Shown here: positions 3,103-64,000 of the stretch, piece by piece
Layout: each line of letters opens with the position of its first letter
Numbering within the stretch: the stretch's first letter is position 1
NCBI GenBank assembly: GCA_045537235.1
Contig: JAZSPB010000156.1
Span: 92,638 to 156,637 of the forward strand
DNA length: 64,000 nucleotides
From: Eubacteriales bacterium
GTDB taxonomy: Bacteria > Bacillota > Clostridia > Oscillospirales > CAG-272
Direction of reading: 5' to 3'
The notes under the pieces: generated by a model
Database searches by the model: none
The model's input: only the letters and a program-made list of their open reading frames with translations
What the model was told of the DNA's origin: nothing
Made by a program: the position numbers and the translations under genes

Positions 3103-4938
3103 TTAGCCTTGCGTCTTATCTTCGTAATCGGCGTTGTAGTAGGTAGAATCGCCGTTCTGCTGATCGCCGCCCATATTGCCCATATCGGGACCTGCGCCCT
3201 GTGCACCACTCTGCTTATAAAGCTTTTCGGAAAGTGCATAGAATGCCTTTTCCAGAGCTTCGGTATCAGCCTTGATTGCATCGGTGTCGCCGCCCTTAAG
3301 GGTCTCGCGAAGCTTTTCAATAGCTGCCTTAACCTCGGATTTATCGTCTTCGGGAATCTTATCTCCGATTTCGCCAAGCGTCTTCTCGCTCTGGAAAATA
3401 AGAGATTCGGCATGATTTTTGGTGTCTACCGCTTCCTTCTGCTTCTTGTCTTCCTCGGCATACTTCTCGGCTTCCTTCACAGCCTTATCGATATCCTCTT
3501 GAGACATATTGGTGGAAGACGTGATAGTGATATGAGTCTCCTTACCGGTGCCCTTATCCTGTGCACTTACGTTTACGATACCGTTCGCATCAATATCGAA
3601 GGTAACCTCGATCTGAGGAACGCCGCGAGGAGCTGCGGGAATACCGTCGAGGCTAAAGCGACCGAGAGTCGTATTGCCTGCCGCCATTTCACGCTCGCCC
3701 TGAAGAACATGGATCTCAACCGAAGTCTGACTGTCAGCCGCAGTGGAGAATACCTGGCTCTTCTTCACGGGGATGGTGGTGTTTCTGTCGATAATTCTGG
3801 TAAACACACCGCCAAGGGTCTCAATGCCCAGAGACAAAGGAGTAACGTCCAAAAGCAGAAGATCCTTTACATCGTCGCCAAGAACACCGCCTTGGATAGC
3901 AGCACCGAGAGCCACACACTCATCGGGATTAATACCCTTGAAGGGATCCTTGCCAATAAACTTCTTAACTGCATCCTGAACAGCGGGAATTCTGGTAGAA
4001 CCACCGACAAGAAGTACCTTGTCGATTTGAGATGCATTAATACCTGCATCGCGAAGAACCTGCTGAGTAGGCTTCATGGTAGCGTCTACAAGGTCGGCTG
4101 TAATGCGGTCGAACTCTGCTCTGGTGAGAGTTGCATCAAAGTGGAGAGGTCCGTTGGCATTTGCCGTAATAAAGGGCAGATTGATATTGCTGCTGGACAT
4201 ACCGGAAAGCTCGATCTTTGCTTTCTCTGCTGCTTCTTTAAGTCTCTGAAGAACCATCTTGTCATTACGAAGATCAATGCCGTTTTCAGCCTTGAACTTG
4301 TCAGCCATCCAGTCGATCACTCGCTGGTCGAAGTCATCTCCGCCCAGCTTGTTGTTTCCTGCCGTCGCAAGAACCTCGAACACACCGTCGGAAATCTCAA
4401 GAAGAGATACATCAAAGGTACCTCCGCCAAGGTCAAATACCATGATCTTCTGATCGGTCTCTTTATCCATACCGTAAGCAAGAGCGGCGGCCGTAGGCTC
4501 ATTGATGATTCTCTTAACATCAAGACCTGCGATCTTACCGGCGTCCTTCGTTGCCTGTCTCTGGGCATCCGAGAAGTAAGCGGGAACCGTAATAACCGCC
4601 TCGGTAACAGTGGTACCAAGATATGCTTCTGCATCCGATTTGAGTTTCTGAAGGATCATCGCGGAAATCTCCTGGGGAGTGTAGTCCTTTCCGTCGATAG
4701 AAGTCTTAAAATTGGTTCCCATCTCGCGCTTAACGCTACTGATCGTACGGTCAGGATTGGTGATTGCTTGACGCTTTGCCACCTGACCTACCATACGCTC
4801 TCCGGTCTTGGAGAATGCGACAACAGAGGGGGTGGTACGCGCCCCTTCGGGGTTGGGGATGACGATAGGCTCGCCGCCCTCAAACACTGCGACACAAGAG
4901 TTGGTCGTTCCAAGATCTATTCCGATAATTTTTCCCAT
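3103..4938 (-). CDS. dnaK: Molecular chaperone DnaK (Hsp70)
   Basis: 611 aa with [17 protein letters not shown] and [11 protein letters not shown] Hsp70 signatures. Confidence 0.98.
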
Positions 4939-4989
4939 GATTGTATTTCCTCCTAAATAGTTATTGATATTAATTTATAATGTAGCCAA

Positions 4990-5553
4990 TCAGTTGGCAA
5001 CCTTAACCATTGCATAACGGATGACCTTATCACCCTTGGTATAGCCCTTCATCAAGACCTCTGTGATCTCACTCTCGCCATACTTCTCGTCATCCACGTG
5101 CATTACTGCATTATGGAATTTCGGGTCGAAGGTTTTTCCCACACTCTCAATTTCCCGAACGCCCAGTTTTTCTAACGTCTCGCGGAAGCTCTTGAGAGTC
5201 AGCTCCAATCCTTTGGAAAGCCCCTCCGCATCTTTGCAAGCCTCGGCGCGTTCCAAATTGTCAAGAACCGGCAAAATAGAAGTCAACACATCGGCACAGG
5301 CATCCCCGTAAACACCTTCACGTTCCTTTGCCGAGCGCTTGCGGAAATTGTCATACTCTGCAAGCATACGCATATACTTTTCGTTGATTTCATCAGCGCG
5401 GCGGTTGGCTTCTTCCAAGTCGCTTTCCAGCTTCTTGATTTTCTTTTTATCCTTGTCGCCCGATTTGGACGCTTTAGTCTTTTCTTCTTTCTCCGCCTCG
5501 GAGGAAAGCTCCTCGTTAAGCTCTTGATTTTCAGTTGTCTTGTTTTCCTGCAT
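4990..5553 (-). CDS. grpE: Nucleotide exchange factor GrpE
   Basis: GrpE-like coiled-coil N-terminal half and a C-terminal beta domain (HNAVMHV...GYTKGDKVIRYAMVKV). I moved the start to the ATG at 5553 (MQENK), which has GGAGGG 8 nt upstream. The ORF-track start at 5589 has no RBS. Confidence 0.9.
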   Translation of the reverse strand: MQENKTTENQELNEELSSEAEKEEKTKASKSGDKDKKKIKKLESDLEEANRRADEINEKYMRMLAEYDNFRKRSAKEREGVYGDACADVLTSILPVLDNLERAEACKDAEGLSKGLELTLKSFRETLEKLGVREIESVGKTFDPKFHNAVMHVDDEKYGESEITEVLMKGYTKGDKVIRYAMVKVAN

Positions 5554-41294: not shown

Positions 41295-42599
41295 GTGATT
41301 GAAAATATTGAGTCTGTCCGCAAAGACAGAATTGTCATAAACGGAGGAAATCCTCTTTACGGCGATGTCTTCATCAACGGCATGAAAAACGCCGCTCTGC
41401 CGATTATTTTTGCCACCGTTCTTACCAAAAGCAAATGTGTGATCGAAAATCTCCCCGAGGTAAGCGATGTCGCGATCTCTTTGGAAATTCTTCGCGAAAT
41501 GGGAGCCTCGGTCATCTACCAGTCCCCCACAACGGTAGAGATCGACACTTCCACTTTGGAATACGGCGAGGCACCTTATGAGCTTGTGGGAAAGATGCGC
41601 GCCTCCACCTATTTGATCGGTGCGGAACTCGGTCGATTCGGCAAGGCACAGGTCGGCTGGCCCGGCGGATGTGATTTTGGTGTTCGCCCCATCGACCTTC
41701 ACATAAAAGGCTTCGAAGCCCTTGGAGCCAACGTTTCTATTGAAAACGGTTACATCAATGCCTCAGCCGAAAACGGGCTTGTGGGCAATATGGTTTACTT
41801 TGACGTGGCATCGGTAGGCGCCACGGTCAATGTCATTCTCGCTTCGGTACTGGCCGACGGTATGACCGTCATTGACAATGCCGCTCGCGAGCCTCACATC
41901 GTTGACTTGGCAAACTTTTTCAACACTTGCGGTGCTAACATCATGGGTGCCGGTACCAGTGTAATTAAGATCCGCGGTGTCAAAGAGCTTCACGGATGCA
42001 CCTATACCATCATTCCCGACATGATCGAGGCAGGTACCTTCATGGTTGCCGTTGCCGCAACGGGAGGCAAGGTCAACATTCAGAATGTCATTCCGAAGCA
42101 TATGGAAACGGTTTCCACCAAGCTGTCGGAAATGGGCGTTGATATTGAAGAATATGACGATTCCATCACGGTAACCTCCACGGGAAAGACCAAGGGTGTG
42201 ACGATCAAAACGCTTCCCTATCCCGGCTTCCCTACCGATATGCATCCCCAATTCACTGCGGCTCTTTGTTTCTCGGAAACACCGGGCTTTATATCCGAAG
42301 GTATTTGGGAAAATCGGTTCAAGTACACCGAGGAGCTTCGTAAAATGGGCGCCAATATTCGCGTAGACGGTAACACCGCAACCATCACGGGGGGCTCCAA
42401 GATCACGGGAGCACGCTTGAAAGCGGTAGACCTTCGCGGCGGTGCCGCAGTTCTTATTGCCGCTCTCGCCGCAGACGGAATTTCCGAGATCACGGGAATC
42501 GAGATCATTGAGCGCGGTTATTACGACATCGTCGGTAAATTCCGTGCTTTGGGCGCCGATATTGCCTACGATCCGTCCGAGTTGTCCACGGTTAACTAA
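41295..42599 (+). CDS. murA: UDP-N-acetylglucosamine 1-carboxyvinyltransferase
   Basis: MurA fold repeats, an active-site loop region (KMRASTYLIG; PGGCDFGVRPIDLH with Cys) and a C-terminus of ...IERGYYDIVGKFRALGADI. I moved the start to the GTG at 41295 after AAAGGAG. Confidence 0.93.
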   Translation: MIENIESVRKDRIVINGGNPLYGDVFINGMKNAALPIIFATVLTKSKCVIENLPEVSDVAISLEILREMGASVIYQSPTTVEIDTSTLEYGEAPYELVGKMRASTYLIGAELGRFGKAQVGWPGGCDFGVRPIDLHIKGFEALGANVSIENGYINASAENGLVGNMVYFDVASVGATVNVILASVLADGMTVIDNAAREPHIVDLANFFNTCGANIMGAGTSVIKIRGVKELHGCTYTIIPDMIEAGTFMVAVAATGGKVNIQNVIPKHMETVSTKLSEMGVDIEEYDDSITVTSTGKTKGVTIKTLPYPGFPTDMHPQFTAALCFSETPGFISEGIWENRFKYTEELRKMGANIRVDGNTATITGGSKITGARLKAVDLRGGAAVLIAALAADGISEITGIEIIERGYYDIVGKFRALGADIAYDPSELSTVN

Positions 42600-42695
42600 A
42601 TCCATGATATACGGGACTGTCGCAATGGTCTGCTACGGCAGATCGTCGGCGGTCCTGTTTTGTGAGTCACTAAAAAACGAAAGGACTGTTCTATT

Positions 42696-46189: not shown

Positions 46190-46197
46190 CGGTTGAA

Positions 46198-46392
46198 GCG
46201 CCTGCGGGCGCAGAAGGTCGCTTTTTTGAAAAAAAGCTCCGCAAAAAACTTTTGTCGCTCGCTCTTATTATAGTTTGTGCAAACATAGCGTTATGCCGTA
46301 GTAGGCAGTGTGTTTGCGCTCACATTAACAAGGGCGTGTGATAAAGTTTTTGCGGAGCTTTTTTAGCAAATTTCGTCCTGCGGCCGCAGGCG
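46198..46392 (-). repeat. Long-hairpin intergenic repeat, copy A (opposite orientation to B-D by its central loop)
   Basis: The left arm is GCGCCTGCGGGCGCAGAAGGTCGCTTTTTTGAAAAAAAGCTCCGCAAAAAACTTTT. The right arm is its near reverse complement (AAAGTTTTTGCGGAGCTTTTTT...CCTGCGGCCGCAGGCG). The inner stem is GCAAACA/TGTTTGC. It sits between convergent gene ends. Confidence 0.85.
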
Positions 46393-46397
46393 TTTAA

Positions 46398-49475: not shown

Positions 49476-49504
49476 AAAGATTCCTCCACTATATAATTGT
49501 ACTT

Positions 49505-49588: not shown

Positions 49589-49806
49589 GGGCGCCTGTGG
49601 GCGCGGGAGGTCGCTTTTTTGAAAAAAAGCTCCGCAAAAAACTTTTCTATTGCACCCTGCCGAATTTGAGCGAACATACTGCCCCCTAATGGGTATCGCT
49701 ATGTTCGCATAAACTACAATAAGGCGCAATAGAAAAGTTTTTGCGCACTTTCGAAGAAAGTGTGCTTTTCTTCAAAAAGCGACCTCCCCGCGCCCGCAGG
49801 CGCCCC
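49589..49806 (+). repeat. Long-hairpin intergenic repeat, copy B
   Basis: GGGCGCCTGTGGGCGCGGGAGGTCGCTTTTTTGAAAAAAAGCTCCGCAAAAAACTTTTCTATTGC ... GCGAACATA-loop-TATGTTCGC ... GCAATAGAAAAGTTTTTGCG...AAAAAGCGACCTCCCCGCGCCCGCAGGCGCC. It folds as one nested palindrome. Confidence 0.9.
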
Positions 49807-58390: not shown

Positions 58391-58576
58391 AGAGCCTTTG
58401 AAAAAACTCCGCAAAAATCTCTTGTCTTGCCCCCATGGTAGTGTTTGAGCCAACATACTGCTTCCATTAGGATATCAGTATGTTTGCCAAAACTACCAAA
58501 AAGAGCAGATCAAAAGTTTTTGCGGAGTTTTTTAGAGCAACAGACATTTTACAAAATGTCCTAATGCCGAAGGCGC
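58391..58576 (+). repeat. Long-hairpin intergenic repeat, copy D (shorter; outer GC-rich ends degenerate or absent)
   Basis: GAGCCTTTGAAAAAACTCCGCAAAAATCT...GTTTGAGCCAACATACTG-loop-CAGTATGTTTGCCAAAACTA...AAAAGTTTTTGCGGAGTTTTTTAGAGC. A weak match to the outer arm lies at 58558-58576. Confidence 0.8.
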
Positions 58577-58637: not shown

Positions 58638-61600
58638 TTAATCAAAACATTTGAGCGTCGGAGCCTGACCGTTTACGATGTTCCAAATCTCGGGGTCAAA
58701 ATACAAGGTGTTGAGAAGGAAATCTTTACTCAAAAGGACGGAAGTTGCCTTGGCTTCGCCTGCGGTACAGGTGGGGGTTACAGTGGTGTTGTTCTGTGCC
58801 ACATTTGCTTGATTGGAGTAATAGCAAGAAAGCACTGTTCCTTCTGTTTTTCCAAGGAACTTACCATAACCGACAGCAAGAGAAAAATTAACATCGCCCA
58901 AAGAAAAACATTTGGTGACAACCGCGCCGGCCTCATTATTGCCTACAAAACCACCAAGATAACCGCTGTCAGTTACAGCATTCAGAATGTTGACGGAAGT
59001 ATATACATTCTTTATAATTGCCTTATCTCCACTATTTAATCCAACGGCACCACCGCTGCAATTATATACACCATAGTCGCTATTTATTTGAGTGTTTGTT
59101 CCCGTAGAAAAGCTATCAAGAAGTGTACCGCGGTTTTCTCCAATCAATCCACCACTCCAATAGTTCTTTCCGGCATTTCCAACATATTTTACATCAAACG
59201 AAATATCCGCCATACATTCTCTAACTATAGCGGTTTCATCCGCTGTATTTTTTCCTACAATACCTCCAAGTACTAACTCCAAATGAGACCAACCAGCGGT
59301 ACCAACTGAAGACGATTTTGTTCCAACCAAAATGAACTCTGCTTCGCTCTTTTCAACAACATTTGTATTTAATCCTGCAATTCCACCAAAATAGGCATAA
59401 CAATAAATACTATATTTGTAATAACTACTCGTATATAGATAAATAGCCGAATCTACAGCGACTTCAAGGTGGCATTCGGAAATAACTCCATTATTGGTAC
59501 CAGCGACACCGCCCAAAATTGCTTGCCAATTCACTGCCCCATAGTGTTCAGAGTTATACGTATAGTCTATCTTGGCTGAAAGCACATCACAATTAATAAT
59601 ATTTCCTTCGTTAATACCGGCAATTACTCCCGTATTAGTGGAACTTACAGAATTGTTGGTTGTCGTTAATAAAACATTCTCGAATCCAACATTCTTAATC
59701 GTACCACTATTCACTCTAAAGAACCCAACATCAATTGCCGTGGTGGAAAGGGCGGATATAGCAAAGTTGTAAATCTTAAAACCCTTACCATCAAACGTAC
59801 CCGTAAACTTATCAATCGGTGTCCAGATATCGCCCTTGTAGTTAATATCGTTCCCCAGCACATAATTGCCCGACGGATTGGTTGCGATCGCGGCAAGCTC
59901 TTCGGCGGTCTTGATCACGATCATCTCGCCGCCCAACATCTTTGCGTAGATCGTGGTACTGGCATTCAGTGCATAGTCAAATTTATATTCTTTGGTAAAG
60001 GCACTGTCAAGATACCATCCCAAGAAAGCATAGCCACTCTTTACGGGATCGGCGGGTTTCGTGGGGATCTCGCCCTTATAAACCCCTTCGCTTGCGATCT
60101 GGGTTCCGCCGGCGGTGTTATAGGTGACAGTATACATCTGCTTAACATACTGCGCCTTTACCGTCATGTCAGCCTTCACCGAGCTGAATGACTTATCCCA
60201 TCCGCTGAAAGGGATATCGTTTACATAAGAAGGCATAGAGGGCGCCTTGGCAGACGTTCCGTAGTCAACACTCTGCACACTCACAACCTCGCCGTAATAA
60301 TCCAAGAAGGTCACCTTTACTTTGTTCGGTGTCCATCTTGCCACAAGCTTCATGTCGCCCATCACGGGATCGGTGGTAGTAAAGATACCGTCAACTACCG
60401 TCTTTCCCGTATACCAACCGTCAAAGGTATATCCCGTCTTGGTCGGCACGGTGAGGGCAACTGTTTGTCCGTGATTCACCTTGACACTGGACTGGTAACC
60501 TGCGGCGGCTGTACCTCCATTCAGGTCAAAGGTTACGGTATGCTTCAACAGACCGCCCGAAATAAATTCCTCTATCCATTGTTCTTCGGTTCCTGTATAG
60601 GAAGGATTCTTTTCAATATAAATTTCATAAGCGGACTTTCCGGGGGTACCTTGTGCACCTGCGGCACCTGTGGCTCCCGTATCACCCTTATCTCCCTTAT
60701 CTCCCTTGGCTCCATCCTCACCGTCCTTGCCGGTTGCTTGAACGTCAAGAGATGTCCAATTTTTGCCGCCATCGTAGGAAACTTCCCACATATTGGTGGT
60801 CTTATTGATCTTGATCTGAGGGGTAATACCATCGGTTCCGTCTTTTCCGTCTTTTCCGTCTTCGCCACGGTCTCCCTTATCGCCCTTATCGCCCTTATCG
60901 CCCTTGGCGCCGACAAGAGAGGTCAGCCACTGGGACTCGCTGCCCTTGTAGCCATTCTCCACGGCAAGCTCGTAGGCAGACTTTCCGTCCTCGCCATCCT
61001 CGCCGTCCTCACCGTCATTTCCGTTCTTACCGTTGGTTCCGACCAAAGACGCAAGCCATTCCTGCACATCGCCCTTGTAGCCATTCTCAACAGCAAGCTC
61101 GTAAGCCGACTTACCTGCCGCACCGTCTGTTCCGTTAACGCCTGCCGTTCCAACAAGCGAGGCAAGCCACTCTTCTTCGGTACCCTCAAAGCCAAGCTCA
61201 ACAGCAAGCGCATATGCAGACTGTCCGTCTTTTCCGTCGGCTCCCTTTTCTCCAACCAAGGAGGTCAGCCAAGACCGAATATCGCCTTCATAACCGTTTT
61301 CCACGGCGATCTCATAAGCGGATTTACCCGCCGCACCGACAAGCGATGCCAGCCAATCGGTCTCGGAGCCTTCGTAGCCTTTTTCCACGGCAAGCTCATA
61401 GGCAGAAGTACCGCCAGCGCCTGTTGCACCCGTTTCACCGACCAAAGAAGCCAGCCATTCGGTCATGGTTCCGCGGTAGCCGTTTTCCAAGGCCAACTGA
61501 TAGGCGGATTTTCCGTCGGCACCCACATCCCCCTTGTCACCTTTATCACCCTTATCGCCCTTCGCAGCGGCTGTTCCATCACGACCTACAAGTGACGCAA

Positions 61601-62132
61601 GCCACTCGGTCAAGGTTCCTTCAAAGCCGTTGTCGCAAGCAAGCTCATAGGCAGACTTTCCGTCCGCACCGTCTTTACCGTTGACGCCATCCGTGCCGAC
61701 AAGAGAATCCAACCACTCCGAAAGGGTGCCTCCAAAGCCTGTCTCCACGGCAAGCTCATAGGCAGATTTTCCGTCTGTTCCGTTGATTCCCGCGACTCCC
61801 ACAAGAGAGGAAAGCCACTCGCTCTCGGTACCCTTGTAGCCCTTTTCCACCGCAAGCGCGTATGCGGACTGACCGTCTGCACCGTTTTGTCCTGCGGCAC
61901 CTGTTTCGCCCACAAGAGAGGCGAGCCACTCTTCTACGGTGCCGTCATATCCTTTTTCCACGGCAAGCTCATAGGCCGACTTTCCGTCTGCACCCGTAGC
62001 GCCTTGCTCTCCCGTAGGACCTTGTTCGCCCTTCGGTCCTTGCTTTGCGCAGGAAGCAAACATACAAAGCACCATCATTGCAACGAGCATTATGGACACG
62101 ATTCTCACAATGCTACTCTGTCTTTTTGTCAT
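58638..62132 (-). CDS. Giant surface lipoprotein with collagen-like G-X-Y tracts, 11 tail-fibre-like SAYELAVE modules, three Listeria-Bacteroides (Flg_new) repeats and a GLUG-motif region
   Basis: Lipobox MFASC. GPKGEQGPTGEQGATG and GDKGDKGDKGD tracts are present, with repeated SAYELAVE.GY.G...EWL.SLVG modules. Flg_new-type repeats include TVTFDLNGG...GYTFDGWY. GLUG-like motifs include GGIAGLN, GGLIGEN and GGFVGNN. I moved the start to the ATG at 62132 (MTKRQSS), 8 nt after AAGGAGG. The ORF-track start at 62171 has no RBS. Confidence 0.85.
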   Translation of the reverse strand: MTKRQSSIVRIVSIMLVAMMVLCMFASCAKQGPKGEQGPTGEQGATGADGKSAYELAVEKGYDGTVEEWLASLVGETGAAGQNGADGQSAYALAVEKGYKGTESEWLSSLVGVAGINGTDGKSAYELAVETGFGGTLSEWLDSLVGTDGVNGKDGADGKSAYELACDNGFEGTLTEWLASLVGRDGTAAAKGDKGDKGDKGDVGADGKSAYQLALENGYRGTMTEWLASLVGETGATGAGGTSAYELAVEKGYEGSETDWLASLVGAAGKSAYEIAVENGYEGDIRSWLTSLVGEKGADGKDGQSAYALAVELGFEGTEEEWLASLVGTAGVNGTDGAAGKSAYELAVENGYKGDVQEWLASLVGTNGKNGNDGEDGEDGEDGKSAYELAVENGYKGSESQWLTSLVGAKGDKGDKGDKGDRGEDGKDGKDGTDGITPQIKINKTTNMWEVSYDGGKNWTSLDVQATGKDGEDGAKGDKGDKGDTGATGAAGAQGTPGKSAYEIYIEKNPSYTGTEEQWIEEFISGGLLKHTVTFDLNGGTAAAGYQSSVKVNHGQTVALTVPTKTGYTFDGWYTGKTVVDGIFTTTDPVMGDMKLVARWTPNKVKVTFLDYYGEVVSVQSVDYGTSAKAPSMPSYVNDIPFSGWDKSFSSVKADMTVKAQYVKQMYTVTYNTAGGTQIASEGVYKGEIPTKPADPVKSGYAFLGWYLDSAFTKEYKFDYALNASTTIYAKMLGGEMIVIKTAEELAAIATNPSGNYVLGNDINYKGDIWTPIDKFTGTFDGKGFKIYNFAISALSTTAIDVGFFRVNSGTIKNVGFENVLLTTTNNSVSSTNTGVIAGINEGNIINCDVLSAKIDYTYNSEHYGAVNWQAILGGVAGTNNGVISECHLEVAVDSAIYLYTSSYYKYSIYCYAYFGGIAGLNTNVVEKSEAEFILVGTKSSSVGTAGWSHLELVLGGIVGKNTADETAIVRECMADISFDVKYVGNAGKNYWSGGLIGENRGTLLDSFSTGTNTQINSDYGVYNCSGGAVGLNSGDKAIIKNVYTSVNILNAVTDSGYLGGFVGNNEAGAVVTKCFSLGDVNFSLAVGYGKFLGKTEGTVLSCYYSNQANVAQNNTTVTPTCTAGEAKATSVLLSKDFLLNTLYFDPEIWNIVNGQAPTLKCFD
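60912..61979 (-). repeat. In-frame tandem coding repeats (10 consecutive modules of about 28-50 aa)
   Basis: The modules are repeated at protein level: SAYELAVEKGYDGTVEEWLASLVG, SAYALAVEKGYKGTESEWLSSLVG, SAYELAVETGFGGTLSEWLDSLVG and so on. They are separated by G-X-Y spacers of variable length. An eleventh, degenerate module lies at about 60552-60640. Confidence 0.85.
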
Positions 62133-62176
62133 CGTAATGACCTCCTTTTTGAATTTCATAGAGGATGTCACTCCAG

Positions 62177-62193
62177 AATAACAATTATGTAGT
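62177..62193. repeat. Left inverted repeat of the candidate invertible promoter
   Basis: AATAACAATTATGTAGT is the exact reverse complement of 62359-62375. Confidence 0.9.
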
Positions 62194-62358
62194 ATGCTTT
62201 TTTGTTAAAAAGAATTTTTTCGCTCCAAAGTGCATAGCTTTTTGACCAATGAAAATTTTTTGTCTTTCATTGGTCTTGTTGCTATGTCTTTTTTGATATT
62301 TTTTCCTTGACAAATTGCTCGGTTGGTGGTATCATTTTATATGTATAGACGGAAATGC
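62194..62358 (+). promoter_or_regulatory. Candidate invertible DNA segment carrying a near-consensus sigma-A promoter, currently facing the + strand
   Basis: TTGACA (62307-62312), 17 nt, TGgTATCAT (62327-62335) on the + strand. An internal 11-bp-stem hairpin is GACCAATGAAA (62244-62254) / TTTCATTGGTC (62265-62275). Confidence 0.7.
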
Positions 62359-62375
62359 ACTACATAATTGTTATT
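62359..62375. repeat. Right inverted repeat of the candidate invertible promoter
   Basis: ACTACATAATTGTTATT overlaps the recombinase stop codon (62374-62376) by 2 nt. Confidence 0.9.
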
Positions 62376-63216
62376 ATGTTATTAACAGCAATCCCAACCT
62401 TTGAATCTGCCTTCGATGAACCTCACCGCTCTCCATTGTATATATCCTCGTGGTATTTACGCTGGAATGCCCGAGGATATCCGCGAGGCAGACAATATCC
62501 TTTTGTACAGTATAATAAGTGCGCGCAAAAATATGGCGGAGATTGTGGGGAAAAACCTTTTTCTCCGACACTCCTGCGAGCTTACACAACCTTTTCATGT
62601 CCGTCCATATATTAGAGCGATTCAGCGGATTCCCGTTTTTTGTCACGAAAACGGCTCCGCTTTTTATTTTTTGCTGACGGATATAGTTTTTCAGAATTTT
62701 ACAAAGTCCTTGTGGAAGAAATACACTTCGATGCTTCCCTTTGCAATGAATCTCCGCGCGCCCTCGGTTTACCGCCTCAACGGTGATATGTCTTAACTCG
62801 GAAACACGAATGCCGGTGGAGCAAATAGCTTGCATCAGCAAATACAGACGTTGATTTTTCTTTTGCTGCGCCGCTTTCAGCAATCGCTCATATTCGCTCT
62901 TGGTCAATTCCCTTTCATCGCTCGCAAAAAGTTGTTTTTGAATTTTGACCGTCTTGACTCGCAACTCATACCATTCGCAGTAGTCAAAAAAGCTGTTCAA
63001 TGATGACAGCGCAGCATTGACACTGGCAAGCGCATAGTGATCCAATAAAAAAGCCTTGTATCTCAAGACCGCCTCCTTATCCACCGATGCGCTAGGCAAC
63101 CAACGAAGAAACGCAACAATTTCGTGCATATATTTTTCAACCGTTGCCGCAGTCTTTTCCTCATAAAGCAAATATGTGCGATATTCGGCAAGCAACTCAT
63201 TTTTCAATTTTCTCAT
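62374..63216 (-). CDS. Small tyrosine recombinase (Xer/phage-integrase family), candidate invertase
   Basis: 280 aa with a SAM-like N-terminal domain, then STGIRVSELRHI (Arg), HNLRHIFART (H-x-x-R) and LGHSSVNTTRIYT (Tyr). Confidence 0.85.
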   Translation of the reverse strand: MRKLKNELLAEYRTYLLYEEKTAATVEKYMHEIVAFLRWLPSASVDKEAVLRYKAFLLDHYALASVNAALSSLNSFFDYCEWYELRVKTVKIQKQLFASDERELTKSEYERLLKAAQQKKNQRLYLLMQAICSTGIRVSELRHITVEAVNRGRAEIHCKGKHRSVFLPQGLCKILKNYIRQQKIKSGAVFVTKNGNPLNRSNIWTDMKRLCKLAGVSEKKVFPHNLRHIFARTYYTVQKDIVCLADILGHSSVNTTRIYTMESGEVHRRQIQRLGLLLIT

Positions 63217-63310
63217 AGTTCACACCCTCTCTTTCACCTATATCTTACCACCAAAATCCCATTGTTATAGATTAAAAAAAAGATTTGAACGTAATGTACT
63301 CTCAGACGCC

Positions 63311-63344
63311 AAAAAAAAGAGCCATCCAAAGGGCGCGCGCTCTT
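63311..63344 (-). terminator. Candidate second terminator hairpin upstream of the recombinase gene
   Basis: Minus strand: AAGAGC, 16-nt GC-rich loop, GCTCTT, followed by TTTTTTGG. Confidence 0.45.
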
Positions 63345-63399
63345 AAGGACAGTTTTTGAAATTTAATAGAACACGTTACCTACCGACAGTAAAAATTGA

Positions 63400-63443
63400 G
63401 GGGTGTCTCAAATGCGATAAAAAGCATTTGAGACACCCCTTTT
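63400..63443 (-). terminator. Strong rho-independent (bidirectional) terminator after the partial upstream gene
   Basis: 16-bp perfect stem GGGGTGTCTCAAATGC (63400-63415) / GCATTTGAGACACCCC (63424-63439). TTTT follows on the + strand and TCAATTTTT on the minus strand. Confidence 0.85.
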
Positions 63444-63516
63444 ATTGTTCATCTATACTTGTCAATTTTCTTGACAAGCACTGCTTTTGTGGACACAAAA
63501 GAATAAATAATACTCC

Positions 63517-64000
63517 TTAAAAAATTTCAAAATTGAATATATGGGCAGTAGATGAACCGTAATCTTCGGTTTTTCTTTCGCTGTGGTACGTACTGATCGG
63601 AATTAAACGAACTGCTTTCGTTACTGTATTTAATTCATGTTTAATAAAGCGCTGATGATTGTCAGATATCTCTATAACGGTTTTCCAATTTTCCAATTCA
63701 TCCAAAATCTCAATTTTATAATGCTTGATCAGGCATTTTGGGAAGCCAAAGCTCGTATGATTATAGCTTTTTGGGAAAAACAACGTTGACGAGGTATGCA
63801 AAGCATCGGGGTTTCCATCTGTGTATTCTCTGTCAAGATCGCTGTCAAAGACCAATCTGACGCCGTTTACGTGCTTGGGCGAATCAAAGGTATACGTGAT
63901 GGCTTTGTTTGTTTTTCCAAAATATCCATTATCGTTCCCCCATATGCGACGGTCTATCCCGTTGAGCAAAGCAGACGGATCGCCGTAATCTGCCGTAAGC
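63517..64000 (-). CDS. C-terminal part of a larger protein (5' end outside the window); beta-sandwich-like domain, function unknown
   Basis: The reading frame stays open upstream of the ORF-track TTG start to the window edge (my own translation: ...LTADYGDPSALLNGIDRR...). I make no confident family call. Confidence 0.55.
   Translation of the reverse strand, partial: LTADYGDPSALLNGIDRRIWGNDNGYFGKTNKAITYTFDSPKHVNGVRLVFDSDLDREYTDGNPDALHTSSTLFFPKSYNHTSFGFPKCLIKHYKIEILDELENWKTVIEISDNHQRFIKHELNTVTKAVRLIPISTYHSERKTEDYGSSTAHIFNFEIF

Follow-up and report, generated by a model that had tools for sequence, protein, structure and literature searches.

Does the short intergenic segment between a tyrosine recombinase gene and the gene for a very large lipoprotein act as an invertible promoter that switches the lipoprotein on and off? 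The question was raised by a sequence-only reading of the stretch of DNA analysed here (64,000 nucleotides, referred to as the window), which had proposed that the segment is an inverton, sequenced in the OFF orientation. Invertons beside surface-protein genes are common in gut bacteria and such switches are well known and frequent in gut Clostridia, and this general picture is unchanged by the switch in the window. The inverton reading was borne out in that the structure of the locus fits, the module recurs in 67 homologous loci and two homologous switches were caught both ways. In our judgement the locus is very probably a functional phase-variation promoter switch that is driven by the adjacent recombinase.

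Core sites, promoter and genes of the probable switch

The perfect 17-bp inverted repeat claimed earlier was recovered exactly, with AATAACAATTATGTAGT at positions 62177-62193 and its exact reverse complement at 62359-62375, 165 nt apart. At 95% identity the repeat grows to 20 nt (62174-62193 and 62359-62378). The window contains no further perfect copy of the 17-mer, for which shuffles predict 0.18 matches at three or fewer mismatches, and 40 random windows of the same first-order composition gave zero perfect inverted repeats of at least 17 nt with a spacing of 50-500 nt. A repeat copy with three mismatches at 49488-49504 was considered as a third site and ruled out, as it lies in the leader of another lipoprotein gene, behind a fixed promoter.

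Comparison with relatives revealed that the 17-bp repeats are the inner portions of two complete, inverted 24-bp core sites, each of which is a near-palindrome made of two 9-nt arms with a 6-nt centre between them. Site 1, on the side of the recombinase gene (62359-62382; plus strand ACTACATAA-TTGTTA-TTATGTTAT), has one mismatch to the family consensus ACWACATAATNNNNATTATGTWGT, and site 2, on the side of the cargo gene (62170-62193; plus strand ACTCCAGAA-TAACAA-TTATGTAGT), has two mismatches. Zero chance matches to this consensus are expected and none was obtained with shuffles. The two centres, at 62179-62184 in site 2 and at 62368-62373 in site 1, are exact reverse complements. Site 2 has a degenerate outer arm (ACTCCAGAA compared to ACWACATAA in the consensus), so that recombination activity could be reduced. 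The interior between the core sites covers 62194-62358 (165 bp), and the DNA predicted to invert covers 62185-62367, based on the site structure and on the crossover positions in two pairs of homologous contigs described below (L101 compared to L100, and L051 compared to L053). Judged from their sequence, the core sites are palindromic with a 9-6-9 layout (..ACATAA-N6-TTATGT..), which follows the plan of tyrosine recombinase sites and is specifically dif-like; the dif site of E. coli reads ..GCGCATAA-TGTATA-TTATGTTAAAT. A megablast of the locus against plasmid sequences gave no match.

The gene of the presumed invertase (280 aa; 62374-63216, minus strand), identified by its ORF and Pfam match, reads toward the switch and ends in site 1, with its stop codon (62374-62376) within the right repeat. 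The protein matched Pfam PF00589 (Phage_integrase) with E = 1.1e-32, in addition to N-terminal SAM-like domains, and the catalytic residues R137, K159, H224, R227, H250 and Y259 were invariant in an alignment of 26 homologues. The top NCBIfam models were XerA, XerD and XerC, and the recombinase scored under the equivalog cut-off of each (148.4 versus 220 for XerA, 120.5 versus 329.6 for XerD and 113.3 versus 335 for XerC). The models for FimB/E-type invertases were missed as well (NF007370, 38.8 bits versus 221; NF007371, 26.5 versus 222), and the nearest solved structures were those of an XerC-like protein (4a8e), XerA (5hxy) and XerD (1a0p). By these scores the recombinase is Xer-like and outside the FimB/E clade, with the Xer dimer-resolution proteins as its closest apparent relatives, yet it is not a member of them; the scores and structures agree with the dif-like reading of the core sites. 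Another 280-aa ORF, at 41763-42605, was considered as a second recombinase and ruled out as a shadow of an EPSP synthase gene. Upstream of the recombinase gene we found a bidirectional, terminator-like hairpin (63398-63441) with 17-18 pairs, nine of them G-C, and T runs on both strands. This hairpin bounds the module on its outer side and is likely where any antisense RNA from the OFF-state promoter would stop.

The candidate switch promoter is located at 62307-62335 on the plus strand and consists of a -35 element TTGACA (62307-62312), a 17-nt spacer and an extended -10 element TGgTATCAT (62327-62335). It had been called the best promoter of the region and this was confirmed as far as consensus matching goes, as it is the sole 11/12 match in 61900-63600. 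Equally, the claim that there is no rival minus-strand promoter was upheld, with no match of at least 9/12 between the recombinase gene and the lipoprotein gene. As sequenced, the predicted promoter is directed across site 1, antisense to the recombinase gene and away from the lipoprotein gene, which is the OFF orientation. No terminator-like site was found inside the switch, nor between the recombinase gene and the cargo gene in the OFF orientation. The cargo could therefore be expressed at a basal level by transcripts that run on from the recombinase gene, and OFF may mean low and not zero.

The cargo gene (58638-62132, minus strand) is an ORF for a predicted surface lipoprotein of 1164 aa, with the RBS GGAGG at 62141-62145 and the ATG at 62130-62132. 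Its start was correctly described as close to the left repeat, the GGAGG being 8 nt before the ATG and the ATG 44 nt past the repeat. The N terminus (...VLCMFAS-C) agrees with the lipoprotein signal pattern when it is read against PROSITE PS51257. The Pfam domains found were Flg_new, Collagen, GLUG and Flg_new_2, and the matches to models of Scl-like collagen adhesins were weak and under the cut-off. Between residues 30 and 500, 11 collagen-like GXY runs alternate with 10 'SAYxxAV' modules of about 35 aa (..KSAYELAVEKGYxGTxxEWLASLVG..), which correspond to a tandem repeat of 102-111 nt in the DNA. Two short contigs that carry the same switch, L001 and L002, both end within this repeat-rich coding stretch, in its 5' part. 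If the switch is real, an uncultured gut Clostridia lineage would have, in this collagen-like lipoprotein with Flg_new and GLUG repeats, a surface antigen or adhesin that is subject to phase variation. Whether the lipoprotein shows up in expression data, and whether strains appear to differ in their assemblies, would then be a matter of switch orientation.

The window also contains long, near-perfect palindromic intergenic elements at 49589-49805, 46196-46395 and 58401-58533, with the common sequence GGCGCCTGCGGGCGC..GGTCGCTTTTTTGAAAAAAAGCTCCGCAAAAA. The element at 49589-49805, flanked by the genes for an ECF-type sigma factor and a 1025-aa SASA-esterase lipoprotein, folds as a single hairpin (-140.6 kcal/mol, z = -15.95) and gave no Rfam match. 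One copy of the element is found directly 3' of the cargo gene of the switch. These elements could be MITE-like elements or giant terminators.

Related switches and natural inversion of two homologues

More than 8000 homologues of the recombinase were scored, a number that is a lower bound. Among the matches listed, a dense cloud of 279-aa proteins with 71-74% identity was found in Clostridia MAGs and gut metagenomes, and the names of the members of the recombinase cluster included no cultured host. From species-representative genomes, metagenome contigs and look-ups of exact proteins we gathered 110 loci (L002-L111). The recombinase stop was located in 107 of these loci, and 87 of the 107 had at least 330 nt downstream. 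A site at 0-45 nt past the recombinase stop, followed by a second, inverted site 110-320 nt further on, was present in 67 of the 87 loci; these 67 come from Clostridia genomes and from metagenomes. The definition of a site pair demanded exactly reverse-complementary 6-nt centres, and an unconstrained repeat search gave a matching picture; there were 30 different centres among the 67 switches, always matched within one locus. The arm sequence tracks the recombinase clade, with CATAA/TTATG, CAGAA/TTCTG and CGGAA/TTCCG as the classes. Across the family the repeats measured 17-32 nt and the segments 110-320 nt. The possibility that assemblies break at the switch was also considered. As 20 of the 107 contigs end less than 330 nt past the stop, compared to about 15 that start less than 330 nt upstream, contig ends were not clearly enriched and the argument was dropped.

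A near-consensus promoter with an extended -10 was found inside 59 of the 67 switches, about 35-97 nt (mostly 51-74) from one site and firing outward across that site. It is equivalent to the promoter in the window, which it matches in its distance from a site (51-66 nt). On 52 of these 59 contigs it was oriented toward the recombinase and on seven, in mirrored geometry, toward the cargo, and the distance from promoter to site was the same in the ON-state loci (51-74 nt) as in the OFF-state loci. Past site 2, a co-directional ORF with a plausible RBS begins within 10-193 nt in 46 of the 52 switches checked. The cargo products are mostly envelope or surface proteins, such as BspA-type LRR, Flg_new and cohesin/dockerin proteins, SPFH proteins with zinc ribbons, TM2, Wzz and a pectate-lyase-like adhesin. 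The cargo further includes TetR regulators, one YpsA protein and one protein that resembles a methyltransferase. One Clostridiaceae MAG (L015) has three family-type sites past the recombinase (4868-4892, 4932-4962 and 5184-5215), with no strong promoter call, and may represent a multi-site, shufflon-like variant.

The segment in the window carries an internal palindrome, GACCAATGAAA-N10-TTTCATTGGTC, at 62244-62275, with an outer extension to 62233-62286. The motif AGRCCAATG-N12-18-CATTGGYCT was found in 19 of 45 distinct switch interiors examined, every one of which belongs to the CATAA/TTATG class, and a copy is present at 2497-2530 of contig L100. It always lies upstream of the -35 element, 50-160 nt (mostly 50-73) from the promoter-distal end. 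The loop varies and the stem sequence itself is kept, which points to a site bound by a protein and not just to an RNA hairpin. The palindrome does not have the form of a canonical terminator, and the switch, the leader and the palindrome gave no Rfam match. It may be a site for an accessory protein.

The most direct evidence for inversion came from homologous switches. A recombinase that is 72% identical to that of the window (P0077) was found together with the same cargo on four contigs from different samples. The promoter faces the recombinase in L100, L102 and L105, and it faces the cargo in L101. Between L101 and the other three contigs the flanks were identical at 400/400 and 399/400 positions, and the interior matched at 217/217 positions as the reverse complement, compared to 138/217 in the same orientation. 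Similarly, in a human-gut sub-family (51% identical) the flanks of L051 matched those of L053 and L054 at 300/300 and 298/300 positions and the interior at 226/229 as the reverse complement. In L051 compared to L053 the inner half-sites were swapped, matching strand exchange within the centre. These differences are natural inversions at homologous switches. The cargo-side site 2 of the L051/L053 sub-family has an equally degenerate outer arm (TTTTGTTTT versus TTCTGTTAT). It was also observed that L051, which is ON, has the centre variant TTTCCA/TGGAAA at both of its sites (3801-3824 and 4060-4083), and its siblings have TTTCCC/GGGAAA.

Some variation was observed in what the homologous segments carry and where they are found. 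In L100, a canonical terminator in the sense of the recombinase is located at 2535-2560, just before site 2 in the OFF state, and in L101 (ON) the same terminator is now on the other strand (2174-2199). Inversion in this pair thus shifts the terminator along with the promoter; the shorter 165-bp segment of the window is without it. The P0077 protein is identical in L100, L103 and L104. L103 has a different upstream gene and the centre TTCCCA compared to TTCTCG. L104 matches L100 as far as 19 nt into the segment, site 1 included, after which follow unrelated sequence and a DUF2971 gene. The differing contexts of P0077 suggest duplication or mobility of the recombinase-switch cassette, or else rearrangements of another kind.

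Proposed mechanism and alternative explanations

Copies of the switch itself were found in the window and on the short contigs L001 and L002 (P0001, 99% identical), and all three were OFF. The exact recombinase sequence was not found in public assemblies, and the source genome was not among the GTDB species representatives. A scan of JGI metagenomes for the repeat together with either inner junction gave zero matches. Flipping of this copy is therefore inferred, and the same holds for the action of the recombinase on the two sites and for promoter activity. The junctions predicted for the inverted orientation join ...CATAATAACAATTATGTAGT to ATGCTTTTTTG... and ...CGGAAATGC to ACTACATAATTGTTATTCTGG...; the in-silico junctions of the flipped form can also be written as ...ACATAATAACAATTATGTAGT joined to ATGCTTTTTTGTT... 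and ...GACGGAAATGC joined to ACTACATAATTGTTATTCTGGAG....

In the proposed mechanism, the recombinase would bind both inverted 24-bp core sites and synapse them, and strand exchange inside the identical 6-nt centres (TAACAA and TTGTTA) would invert about 189 bp. A single strong promoter of the sigma-70 type, with an extended -10, is predicted in the segment. In the OFF state, RNA would start near 62342 on the plus strand, cross site 1 and run antisense through the whole recombinase gene, probably ending at the bidirectional terminator at 63398-63441. In the ON state, the -35 and -10 elements would lie at 62245-62240 and 62222-62217 on the minus strand; these mirrored positions, with a leader of about 80 nt, had been calculated earlier and the arithmetic is correct. 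Transcription would then start near 62210 and pass over site 2, giving a leader of about 78 nt before the ATG. As a speculation, the antisense RNA made in the OFF state might lower the amount of recombinase and bias the switch toward OFF, which would account for the 52:7 excess among the contigs. Such antisense feedback would not be general, as a hairpin and T run at site 1 of L100 resemble a terminator for the antisense RNA.

Among the alternatives, the one that survives best, and which we still regard as unlikely, is that the module derives from an active inverton and is now a relic, decayed or locked. In that case the degenerate outer arm at site 2 would block synapsis or cleavage, the promoter would be frozen in OFF, and the lipoprotein would be silent or expressed by read-through only. 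The two consensus mismatches in that arm are in line with a relic, but the sub-family that is proven to invert has a site 2 outer arm that is equally degenerate. Also, the OFF state of all three available copies would fit; however, OFF is the majority state in the family (52 of 59 contigs), and because it prevails three OFF copies are unsurprising. A relic would further agree with a recombinase gene and cargo that have no terminator between them. Against this stand an intact recombinase ORF with every catalytic residue present, and inner arms and centres that are perfect over 17 nt and would decay without selection or ongoing recombination.

It is more doubtful still, to the point of being very improbable, that the main output of the switch is self-control of the recombinase, or that the pair is primarily a mobile module for integration and excision, with regulation of the lipoprotein being incidental. 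The promoter is indeed antisense to the recombinase gene in the common orientation, but in the ON contigs it aims into the cargo at the mirrored distance. An identical recombinase (P0077) is found beside different neighbours, as would be expected of a mobile module, whereas inverted sites lead to inversion and not to excision. The cargo genes are highly diverse, and this too would be consistent with an incidental role; however, a co-directional ORF with an RBS lies 10-193 nt from site 2 in 46 of 52 switches, and in the window the 44 nt before the cargo ATG are too short for another promoter. Finally, that the inverted repeat arose by chance or has a purely structural role (an operator pair or an RNA structure) unrelated to recombination has next to no credibility, as nothing specific speaks for it beyond the fact that short repeats do arise in AT-rich intergenic DNA, and against it are a chance expectation of essentially zero, an architecture kept over 67 loci with centres matched per locus, homologues that really invert and a region without any Rfam match.

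The reading of the locus as a promoter switch driven by the adjacent recombinase can be extended to the whole family, and this extension is tentative. It holds that there is a very large family of cis-acting, Xer-derived invertases, mechanistically undissected, in which each recombinase might be paired with its own dif-like sites and their private 6-nt centres, forming a library of orthogonal pairs. The shared AGRCCAATG..CATTGGYCT element would bind an accessory factor, and the OFF promoter would feed back by antisense. The family could in that case supply synthetic biology with invertases that are possibly orthogonal to one another. In addition, the 9-6-9 dif-like site model with a locus-specific centre could find such switches from sequence alone.

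Comparison with known systems

The analogy with fimS and FimB/FimE of E. coli that was drawn earlier holds for the logic of the switch and fails for the recombinase, which is not of the FimB/E clade (38.8 bits versus 221 for NF007370). In fimS, as here, one or more recombinase genes are found directly upstream, reading toward a short invertible element whose sigma-70 promoter serves a surface-structure gene downstream; the switch has an ON and an OFF state, and the recombinase gene is exposed to orientation-dependent effects. In contrast, fimS has two recombinases, FimB and FimE, 9-bp repeats with flanking half-sites, and sites for IHF and Lrp, whereas the switch in the window has one recombinase and 24-bp dif-like palindromes.

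RecV of C. difficile is a tyrosine recombinase that inverts short segments upstream of surface and motility genes and thereby causes phase variation (PMC2784873, PMC5386303). Its switches (cwpV, flgB and cmrRST) resemble the present one in belonging to the class Clostridia and in combining a tyrosine recombinase with short segments. RecV is encoded away from its several targets, and the cwpV and flgB switches act after initiation, through the effect of a terminator or of Rho in the leader, and the promoter is not part of them. By its layout the switch in the window is different, with an adjacent recombinase that is dedicated to it and with a promoter that is itself turned around. Xer-like or other tyrosine recombinases that are encoded beside the surface-protein loci they invert are also found in Mycoplasma (Xer1/HvsR-type) and in Bacteroides (Tsr). 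By description these are set apart by their phyla and site sequences, and the Mycoplasma systems, unlike the present one, shuffle coding sequences or promoters among several genes.

With the Xer/dif systems (XerC/XerD, XerA, XerH and XerS) the switch shares the best relatives of its recombinase and sites with arms around a 6-nt centre that end in ..CATAA-N6-TTATG... Unlike in Xer/dif, there are two inverted sites about 190 bp apart beside a gene, the outcome is inversion and the centre varies by locus.

In the full text of the literature searched, the half-site sequences matched unrelated primers only, and no paper prints them in an inverton context. The DeepInverton paper (PMC11602134) contained nothing specific on the present family. 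The statement in the sequence-only reading that the combination is not a recognised one was nevertheless too strong, as excerpts of a published survey describe a Clostridia inverton group with adjacent tyrosine recombinases (PMC11892184). According to these excerpts of the survey, performed with PhaseFinderDC on the hCom2 community (Microbiome 2025), inverton group 139 comprises 33 invertons, 32 of them in Clostridia, in 17 strains. The same excerpts report that this group has the most significant link of the study to adjacent tyrosine recombinases (invertase group 35), that nearly all group 139 invertons have a tyrosine-type recombinase no more than 5 kb away, and that read-level orientation shifts are documented for the group (PMC11892184). 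Its examples in the excerpts, located around 3,525,576-3,525,832 in Clostridium sp. D5 and around 1,750,639-1,750,893 in Intestinimonas butyriciproducens DSM 26588, combine repeats of 14-26 nt with a spacing of 205-227 nt (PMC11892184). As far as these excerpts go, group 139 is like the present family in its class, Clostridia, in the adjacent tyrosine recombinase and in the geometry of repeat and segment, and dif-like 9-6-9 sites, locus-specific centres and the internal palindrome are absent from the excerpted text. The present analysis adds a precise model of the sites, centres that are specific to each locus, a conserved palindrome and the size of the family. Matched to the excerpts on taxon, adjacency and geometry alone, the present family is probably the same as inverton group 139 with invertase group 35.
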